DNA from: Escherichia coli
Lineage (GTDB): Bacteria > Pseudomonadota > Gammaproteobacteria > Enterobacterales > Enterobacteriaceae
Strand: one strand, 5' to 3'
DNA length: 64,000 bases
Assembly: GCF_003334815.1 (NCBI RefSeq)
Contig: NZ_QOWO01000011.1
Part shown: piece by piece, positions 57,760 through 57,884 of the stretch
How positions within the stretch are numbered: position 1 is the stretch's first letter
Layout: each line of letters opens with the position of its first letter
The notes under the pieces: model-generated
The model's input: the letters and a program-made list of their open reading frames with translations, nothing else
The model's database searches: none
Told to the model about the DNA's origin: nothing
Position numbers and translations under genes: made by a program

Positions 57760-57855
57760 TTGATTATCCTTTAAAAAATAAAAACAAAAAATAAAACAAA
57801 AAGTTTAAAAAATGTCCTGCAATATACCGAAGATTATTACAGGACCATGCAAAAA

Positions 57856-57876
57856 GGGGAGGCATTGCGCCTCCCG
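57856..57876 (-). terminator. GC-rich hairpin with T-run in nirD-nirC intergenic region (possible intra-operon attenuator)
   Basis: Minus strand reads gggaggcgcaatgcctccc followed by ctttttgc, then a 60-bp A/T-rich tract before nirC. Confidence 0.5.
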
Positions 57877-57884
57877 TTAAAACA

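Follow-up and report, generated by a model that had tools for sequence, protein, structure and literature searches.

The window analysed here, a 64,000-nt stretch of Escherichia coli DNA, carries on its minus strand nirB (60751..58208), nirD (58211..57885, an ORF that is named nirD in matching E. coli records), nirC (57759..56953) and cysG (56934..55561); the gene order in a K-12-like record is tsgA, nirB, nirD, nirC, cysG, yhfL. The spacer between nirD and nirC occupies exactly positions 57760-57884 (125 nt, minus strand). A 451-nt query around it found a match in all 5426 of 5426 complete E. coli genomes, with 90-100% identity and with the matched genes annotated as nirD and nirC. In the RNA sense, the spacer reads UGUUUUAAC-GGGAGGC-GCAAU-GCCUCCC-CUUUUUGCAUG-GUCCUGUAAUAAUCUUCGGUAUAUUGCAGGAC-AUUUUUUAAACUUUUUGUUUUAUUUUUUGUUUUUAUUUUUUAAAGGAUAAUCAA-AUG.

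Hairpins, U-rich tract and NarS site of the spacer

The first element after the nirD stop codon (UAA, 57885..57887, minus strand) is a putative intra-operonic intrinsic terminator stem-loop, hairpin 1 (57857..57875, minus strand; GGGAGGC-GCAAU-GCCUCCC), whose base lies 9 nt downstream of the stop codon. Its stem has seven Watson-Crick pairs, six of them G-C, and a 5-nt loop in which a closing G-U pair is possible; our terminator scan lists it with eight pairs, six G-C. The predicted fold has -14.7 kcal/mol and a z score of -3.3, equalled by none of 200 shuffled sequences. A preliminary description had located this gggaggc/gcctccc hairpin at 57856-57876, and we find it at 57875..57857, the former span including one unpaired C on each side. 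The tail that it reported, CUUUUUGC, is likewise present (57849..57856, minus strand), and the predicted release sites would lie at about 57851-57849. It places five U among the first six nt after the stem, as compared with the 7-8 U of a textbook tract. Termination at hairpin 1 is probably modest or partial, since the U-run is short (five U after a C, then G-C).

We then asked how often such a motif occurs in the window. A strict scan (perfect stem of at least 7 bp, at least six G-C pairs, a loop of 3-8 nt and at least five T in the next eight bases) returned 11 matches in the whole 64 kb, at about six distinct sites that include hairpin 1, as compared with a mean of 0.33 in block-wise dinucleotide shuffles, indicating that chance is not a sensible explanation of the hairpin 1 motif. 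On a d'Aubenton-Carafa-style score, hairpin 1 ranked about equal to the tsgA terminator and the second hairpin of the spacer (see below) much lower; the score is uncalibrated, giving negative values even for the obvious tsgA terminator, and was used only in relative terms.

Other hairpins of this kind were seen elsewhere in the window. Between the tsgA ORF, which it directly follows, and the nirB promoter region, there is a strong terminator-like hairpin (61004..60979, minus strand) with ten pairs, eight of them G-C, and a CUUUUCC tail. The hairpin at 20199..20226 (plus strand), AAACGGGAGGC-GAAGGU-GCCUCCCGUUU, has a stem nearly identical to that of hairpin 1 and a T-rich tail downstream. This is probably a terminator of the ordinary kind, whose GGGAGGC/GCCUCCC stem may resemble that of hairpin 1 by coincidence. 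A perfect palindrome at 14886..14906 (both strands), TGCCGGAGA(TAT/ATA)TCTCCGGCA, is flanked by T-runs on either side and looks like a bidirectional terminator.

Downstream of hairpin 1, the spacer contains a second hairpin of 32 nt (hairpin 2; 57814..57845, minus strand), GUCCUGUAAUA...UAUUGCAGGAC, followed by AUUUUUU. It forms 11-14 bp, with a G-C-rich base (GUCCUG/CAGGAC), an A-U-rich upper stem and a CUUCGG apex; together with its AUG flank (35 nt), it has about 40% G+C. Its predicted fold has -14.9 kcal/mol and a z score of -5.8. The preliminary description had missed this hairpin and had placed about 60 bp of almost pure A/T directly after the tail of hairpin 1, which has to be corrected: hairpin 2 intervenes, and the tract itself is 41-44 nt long. 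The nearly pure A/T tract (57813..57770, 44 nt) contains three G/C and reaches into the nirC ribosome-binding site; its first 41 nt (57773..57813, minus strand) hold 32 U and one C in the RNA, and double as U tail for hairpin 2 and 5' leader for nirC. This U-rich tract is probably, to judge from Salmonella, the zone of RNase E cleavage in E. coli, and it is a candidate site for Hfq.

A consensus scan of the spacer identified no promoter that could serve nirC or an antisense RNA. We therefore rejected the A/T tract as an internal promoter, also because the nirC 5' ends in Salmonella are processed and not primary. Likewise, a scan of 55000-61500 against Rfam 15 with permissive thresholds gave nothing near any gathering score. 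The best match to a described RNA family was that to the 3' UTR-derived small RNA sroE, with 22 bits where the gathering threshold is 51 (E 0.13), which is at chance level; no other match was of relevance.

The spacer also contains a small ORF of 33 codons (57764..57865, minus strand; MPPLFAWSCNNLRYIAGHFLNFLFYFLFLFFKG), with its AUG in the loop of hairpin 1, its stop codon in the nirC ribosome-binding site and its own ribosome-binding sequence, GGGAGG, locked in the hairpin 1 stem. Its start codon reads ACG in Salmonella and in many Citrobacter, the frame closes after six codons in E. albertii, and in K-12-like strains it is shifted by a 1-nt difference in the T-run. Most likely, then, the ORF is not a gene; we presume that it corresponds to the 'nirE' of the early E. 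coli literature.

The 3' end of the spacer is the predicted pairing site of the small RNA NarS, which spans the nirC ribosome-binding site and the AUG (57759..57757) at 57751..57774 (minus strand) and is defined by its complementarity to the narK 3' UTR. The E. coli narK 3' UTR (positions 5536-5590 of locus L082; AAUAUUUGAUUAUCCUUUGCG plus the terminator) forms with 57774..57751 a predicted duplex of about 22 pairs and -23.9 kcal/mol, in which AUUUGAUUAUCCUUU is perfectly complementary to 57772..57758, a core of 15 perfect pairs. From this perfect complementarity, the trans-acting half of the NarS-nirC circuit appears intact in E. coli. Wang et al. cite E. coli RIL-seq data as support for the NarS pairing (PMC7038943). 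Separately, the E. coli narK 3' UTR (L082 5440-5590) contains an ERIC-like palindrome after the narK stop codon and ahead of the NarS seed and terminator. Members of this ERIC-like family have also entered the nirD-nirC spacer in Salmonella arizonae and other genera, and each of the two partners, NarS and nirC, can thus have a copy beside it.

Conservation of hairpin 1 and variation downstream of it

To examine conservation, we compared 80 loci from distinct species, collected with NirD as the query, in each of which the positions of nirD, nirC and cysG were determined. In the loci that have nirC next to nirD, the spacer measures from 67 to 402 nt across genera, and two of its parts are conserved: the hairpin after the nirD stop codon and a U-rich leader ending in AAGGAUAAUCAA ahead of the nirC AUG. 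This leader precedes the AAGGAUAAUCAA ribosome-binding site in many genera. The distance from the nirD stop codon to hairpin 1 was 3-10 nt (median 7) in 41 enterobacterial loci, and the T-run after hairpin 1 is kept in most genera. Hairpin 1 is also retained in a few genomes that lack nirC, with the T-run in L029 and L077 and without it in L047 and L066.

The hairpin 1 stem varies between genera, occurring as GGGAGGC/GCCUCCC, CGGGGGC/GCCCCCG, GGGCGAGG/CCUCGCCC and GCGGGGG/CUCCCGC. In an alignment of 29 distinct enterobacterial sequences from about 12 genera, 85.5% of the cells were paired, as compared with 45-66% when the partners were slid by 1-3 columns. Two-sided changes were found in six of the ten pairs, in 29 cells, and none of 500 shuffles reached the covariation score. 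Examples of compensation are the basal pair, changed from G-C to C-G, and the fourth pair, changed from A-U to G-C. These comparisons are good evidence that the RNA structure of hairpin 1 itself is under selection.

In many genera (Enterobacter, Kluyvera, Pseudocitrobacter and others; L022, L030-L036, L041-L058, L061, L070 and L076), nirD is followed directly by cysG, with no nirC. The first 150 nt or so after nirD in these nirC-less loci contain a different, conserved, long hairpin, GGUAACAGCAGGAAAAACCGUAUG...CCUGCUGUUAUCC. A TGGTATGCT motif occurs in the nirC-less loci L022, L029, L047, L066 and L077, and its sequence resembles the extended -10 element of a promoter, in this case for cysG.

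The position just past the nirD terminator hairpin is a hot spot for the insertion of palindromes (L007-L028, L038, L059, L067 and L071-L081), while the hairpin and the nirC ribosome-binding site stay fixed. Many of the inserts in Citrobacter are, we assume, REP-like palindromes. Salmonella arizonae and several other genera contain an insert of about 65 nt, 75-82% identical to the palindromic element of the E. coli narK 3' UTR, which we take to be ERIC-like, and the spacers of Buttiauxella, Cedecea and Franconibacter contain other G+C-rich palindromes.

Among the genera compared, hairpin 2 is found only in Escherichia. We rejected its assignment to a dispersed repeat of the REP or ERIC type, because a sensitive blastn search found it in a median of one place per genome over the 5426 E. 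coli genomes. In an alignment of E. coli, E. whittamii, E. albertii and cryptic Escherichia lineages, which represents only a few lineages, the basal stem UCCUG/CAGGA is invariant, two outer pairs differ in both partners between the E. coli and E. albertii types (G-C to A-U and G-C to U-A), one U-G pair is replaced by C-G, and the apical part varies freely.

These data bear on whether hairpin 2 has a role of its own. It may be no more than the neutral remnant of a small palindrome that inserted where this is tolerated, although we do not favour this reading: the stretch from hairpin 1 to the nirC leader is hypervariable in length and carries different inserts in different genera, some species (e.g. 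L021, L027 and L060) lack any insert, and the apex is free to vary within Escherichia. However, a neutral remnant does not readily account for the presence of hairpin 2 in all 5426 E. coli genomes, for its invariant basal stem and the two outer pairs changed on both sides, or for its occurrence outside any dispersed repeat family. The Escherichia alignment thus provides modest evidence that hairpin 2 is a maintained structure. Our best guess is that hairpin 2 and its U6 reinforce the block, as a second weak terminator and/or as a barrier to 3' exonucleases, in which case it would be comparable in function to the palindromic inserts that other genera have at this site.

Transcript data and the role of hairpin 1

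The corresponding operon of Salmonella has been analysed experimentally. Northern blots revealed a weak full-length RNA of 5.4 kb together with nirBD (about 2.8 kb), nirC-cysG (about 2.5 kb) and cysG (about 1.4 kb) transcripts (Wang et al., NAR 2020, PMC7038943). A stem-loop of -14.9 kcal/mol with a U track after nirD was designated the "intra-operonic nirD terminator", and its deletion together with the U track (ΔsU) decreased nirBD transcripts, increased nirC-cysG transcripts and lowered NarS repression of nirC from about 30-fold to about 5-fold; as hairpin and U track were removed together, the deletion did not separate termination from RNA stabilisation (PMC7038943). By 5' RACE, the nirC 5' ends were processed, located in the U-rich region and dependent on RNase E; upon RNase E inactivation, the full-length RNA accumulated and the nirC-cysG RNA vanished (PMC7038943). 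NarS, cleaved from the narK 3' UTR, pairs with the nirC ribosome-binding site, and the authors suggested that Hfq may bind to the U track (PMC7038943).

For E. coli, a set of curated Term-seq 3' ends from aerobic cells, in which the operon is poorly expressed, has none in the spacer (Adams et al., eLife 2021, PMC7815308), and neither nirD nor nirC is mentioned in the TERMITe and iRIL-seq supplements, which we searched for mapped E. coli 3' ends. In aerobic DirectRNA-seq of MG1655, position 3497031(+), just inside nirC, is listed as a Rho termination region (Rho score 3.95, p = 6e-12); without Rho inhibitor, 586 reads in the 800 nt upstream fell to 24 downstream, a 24-fold drop, and with the Rho inhibitor BCM, 920 reads fell to 149, a 6-fold drop, counts that derive from coarse, 800-nt windows and also reflect RNA stability (PMC7815308). 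We read these values as strong polarity across the nirD-nirC junction, partly Rho-dependent and partly not, and the Rho-independent part fits an intrinsic terminator.

A further Rho termination region of the same data set is antisense to the 3' end of nirD (window about 57900-57910, plus strand; MG1655 3496855, minus), with 262 reads upstream, 12 downstream and a Rho score of 3.6 (PMC7815308), which implies an antisense transcript coming from the nirC/spacer side and ending just past hairpin 1.

Together, we consider it likely that hairpin 1 and its short U-run constitute a leaky Rho-independent terminator a few nt past the nirD stop codon, the counterpart of the Salmonella nirD terminator. 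Some of the RNA polymerases starting at the FNR-dependent nirB promoter would stop at hairpin 1, producing a nirBD RNA with a hairpin-protected 3' end, and the remainder would read through to nirC-cysG. The read-through RNA would be cut by RNase E in the U-rich spacer and the resulting nirC-cysG RNA repressed by NarS at the nirC ribosome-binding site; cysG would be served by an additional promoter of its own within nirC, and the net outcome would be more nitrite reductase than nitrite importer. For E. coli, our direct observations are the sequence, fold, conservation and covariation of hairpin 1 and the complementarity to NarS; we infer from Salmonella that the deletion effect, the RNase E dependence and the NarS regulation would also hold quantitatively.

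The preliminary description had proposed that the hairpin lowers read-through into nirC and cysG relative to nirBD, a proposal that gains support by analogy from the Salmonella deletion and that the 6-fold drop of E. coli with BCM fits. It had also suggested that the terminator could explain discoordinate expression within the operon. The terminator would contribute, but it is one of several causes, because RNase E processing, the pairing of NarS, the cysG promoter within the operon and a Rho-dependent component in E. coli also play a part.

Alternatively, the hairpins might not stop the polymerase at all and might only shield nirBD RNA, once RNase E has cut the full-length transcript in the U-rich spacer, from exonucleases attacking its 3' end. 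This was raised by Wang et al. themselves and agrees with the accumulation of full-length RNA and the loss of nirC-cysG RNA upon RNase E inactivation (PMC7038943), with the REP-like, ERIC-like and other palindromes, lacking clear U tails, that other genera have at the site, and with the missing 3' ends in the curated aerobic Term-seq set (PMC7815308). We nevertheless regard it as unlikely, because a pure stability element needs no U-run, and yet most genera keep one right after hairpin 1; besides, the increase of nirC-cysG in the Salmonella deletion fits lost termination better than lost upstream protection (PMC7038943). In any case, the roles in termination and protection are not mutually exclusive.

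The decrease in nirC transcripts of E. coli could also be due mainly to Rho-dependent polarity over a long untranslated spacer and a poorly translated nirC start, with hairpin 1 playing a minor part. The Rho region inside the nirC start, where read-through increases from 4% to 16% with the Rho inhibitor (PMC7815308), points in this direction. However, a 6-fold drop persists with Rho inhibited, the U-rich spacer with its single C in 41 nt differs from the C-rich, G-poor loading sites of Rho (PMC7815308), and polarity of this kind leaves the conservation and covariation of hairpin 1 unexplained, making it a distinctly improbable main cause.

Two further scenarios that go beyond simple termination are, taken jointly, just as improbable. 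In Escherichia, hairpin 1 and hairpin 2 with its U6 tail might act as a tandem terminator and, after an RNase E cut near the nirD stop codon, yield a stable two-hairpin nirD 3' UTR RNA of about 80 nt with an Hfq-type 3' end; or termination at hairpin 1 might be tuned by the closeness of the ribosome finishing nirD to the RNA polymerase, which is conceivable because only 9 nt separate the stop codon from the stem. That a terminating nirD ribosome interferes with the formation of hairpin 1 is speculation.

As background to a regulated attenuator, the weakest of the alternatives, a terminating ribosome covers about 10 nt beyond the stop codon. Tuning of hairpin 1 by nirD translation, with the ribosome masking the stem as in rph-pyrE, or by translation of the 33-codon ORF, is very unlikely: the always short distance from stop codon to hairpin in the 41 loci, within such a ribosome footprint, and the location of GGGAGG and AUG of the small ORF within hairpin 1 and of its end in the nirC ribosome-binding site would suit it, but the short distance may just reflect a compact operon, a fold of 155 nt shows no antiterminator competing with hairpin 1, the small ORF lacks conservation (relatives have an ACG start, an early stop or a frameshift) and the Salmonella study holds no experimental hint of such control (PMC7038943). 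Indeed, folds of 131 and 155 nt contained no competing helix overlapping hairpins 1 and 2, both of which formed unchanged. Hence, from the initial suggestion of an intrinsic terminator or attenuator, we retain the terminator, on the basis of stem, U-run, covariation and the Salmonella deletion, and regard the regulated attenuator as very unlikely, having found neither a competing fold nor a conserved ORF.

The element would help to account for the production by enteric bacteria, from one promoter, of more cytoplasmic nitrite reductase than importer, limiting nitrite toxicity in nitrate respiration, a logic of enzyme over importer that is already published for Salmonella. To this, our analysis adds that many Enterobacteriaceae have the terminator hairpin, maintained with covariation and always a few nt past the nirD stop codon, that a hot spot of palindromic insertion lies directly downstream of it, and that Escherichia has a conserved hairpin 2 of its own, which brings the NarS site closer and might alter termination or RNA stability relative to Salmonella.

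Relationship to known intra-operonic elements

In the rph-pyrE attenuator of E. coli, a terminator hairpin lies within the operon, a few nt past the stop codon of the upstream cistron, and attenuation of pyrE needs UTP-sensitive pausing upstream of the terminator and coupling to the ribosome. The nirD-nirC junction resembles it in having an intra-operonic terminator hairpin a few nt past the upstream stop codon, but neither such an upstream pause region nor regulation of this kind is evident there.

A second likeness is to suboperonic intrinsic terminators and RNA-stabilising hairpins that make the genes of one operon differ in expression, e.g. the REP after iscR in iscRSUA, since in both cases an intercistronic stem-loop favours the upstream RNA segment and a small RNA acts on the downstream cistron (cited in PMC7038943). 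Unlike the iscRSUA REP, however, hairpin 1 is followed by a U-run and is terminator-like and not a REP; hairpin 2, being single-copy, is not a REP either.

The closest relative is the nirD terminator of Salmonella, the organism in which all the functional tests were carried out. The operon is the same, the position just past the nirD stop codon is the same, the stem GGGAGGCGCAA(U/C)GCCUCCC is followed by a U-run in both, and both have the NarS target downstream, at the nirC ribosome-binding site. Two S. enterica subspecies (L008 and L027) contain GGGAGGCGCAACGCCUCCCCUUUUUU 8 nt after the nirD stop codon, and in the window GGGAGGCGCAAUGCCUCCCCUUUUU follows this codon at 9 nt; hairpin 1 and the Salmonella-type hairpin of L008 and L027 (UUAAUUUUGGGAGGCGCAACGCCUCCCCUUUUUU) are one base apart, with G-U instead of G-C closing the loop. 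The two differ downstream: E. coli has five U before G-C and then its genus-specific hairpin 2, whereas in the Salmonella arizonae relative the U-rich stretch is longer and the ERIC-like insert comes next, and the U-run and the NarS site are about 80 nt apart in E. coli, as compared with about 200 nt in Salmonella. Judged by its sequence and position, hairpin 1 is an element that is already known, the E. coli counterpart of the one characterised in Salmonella.
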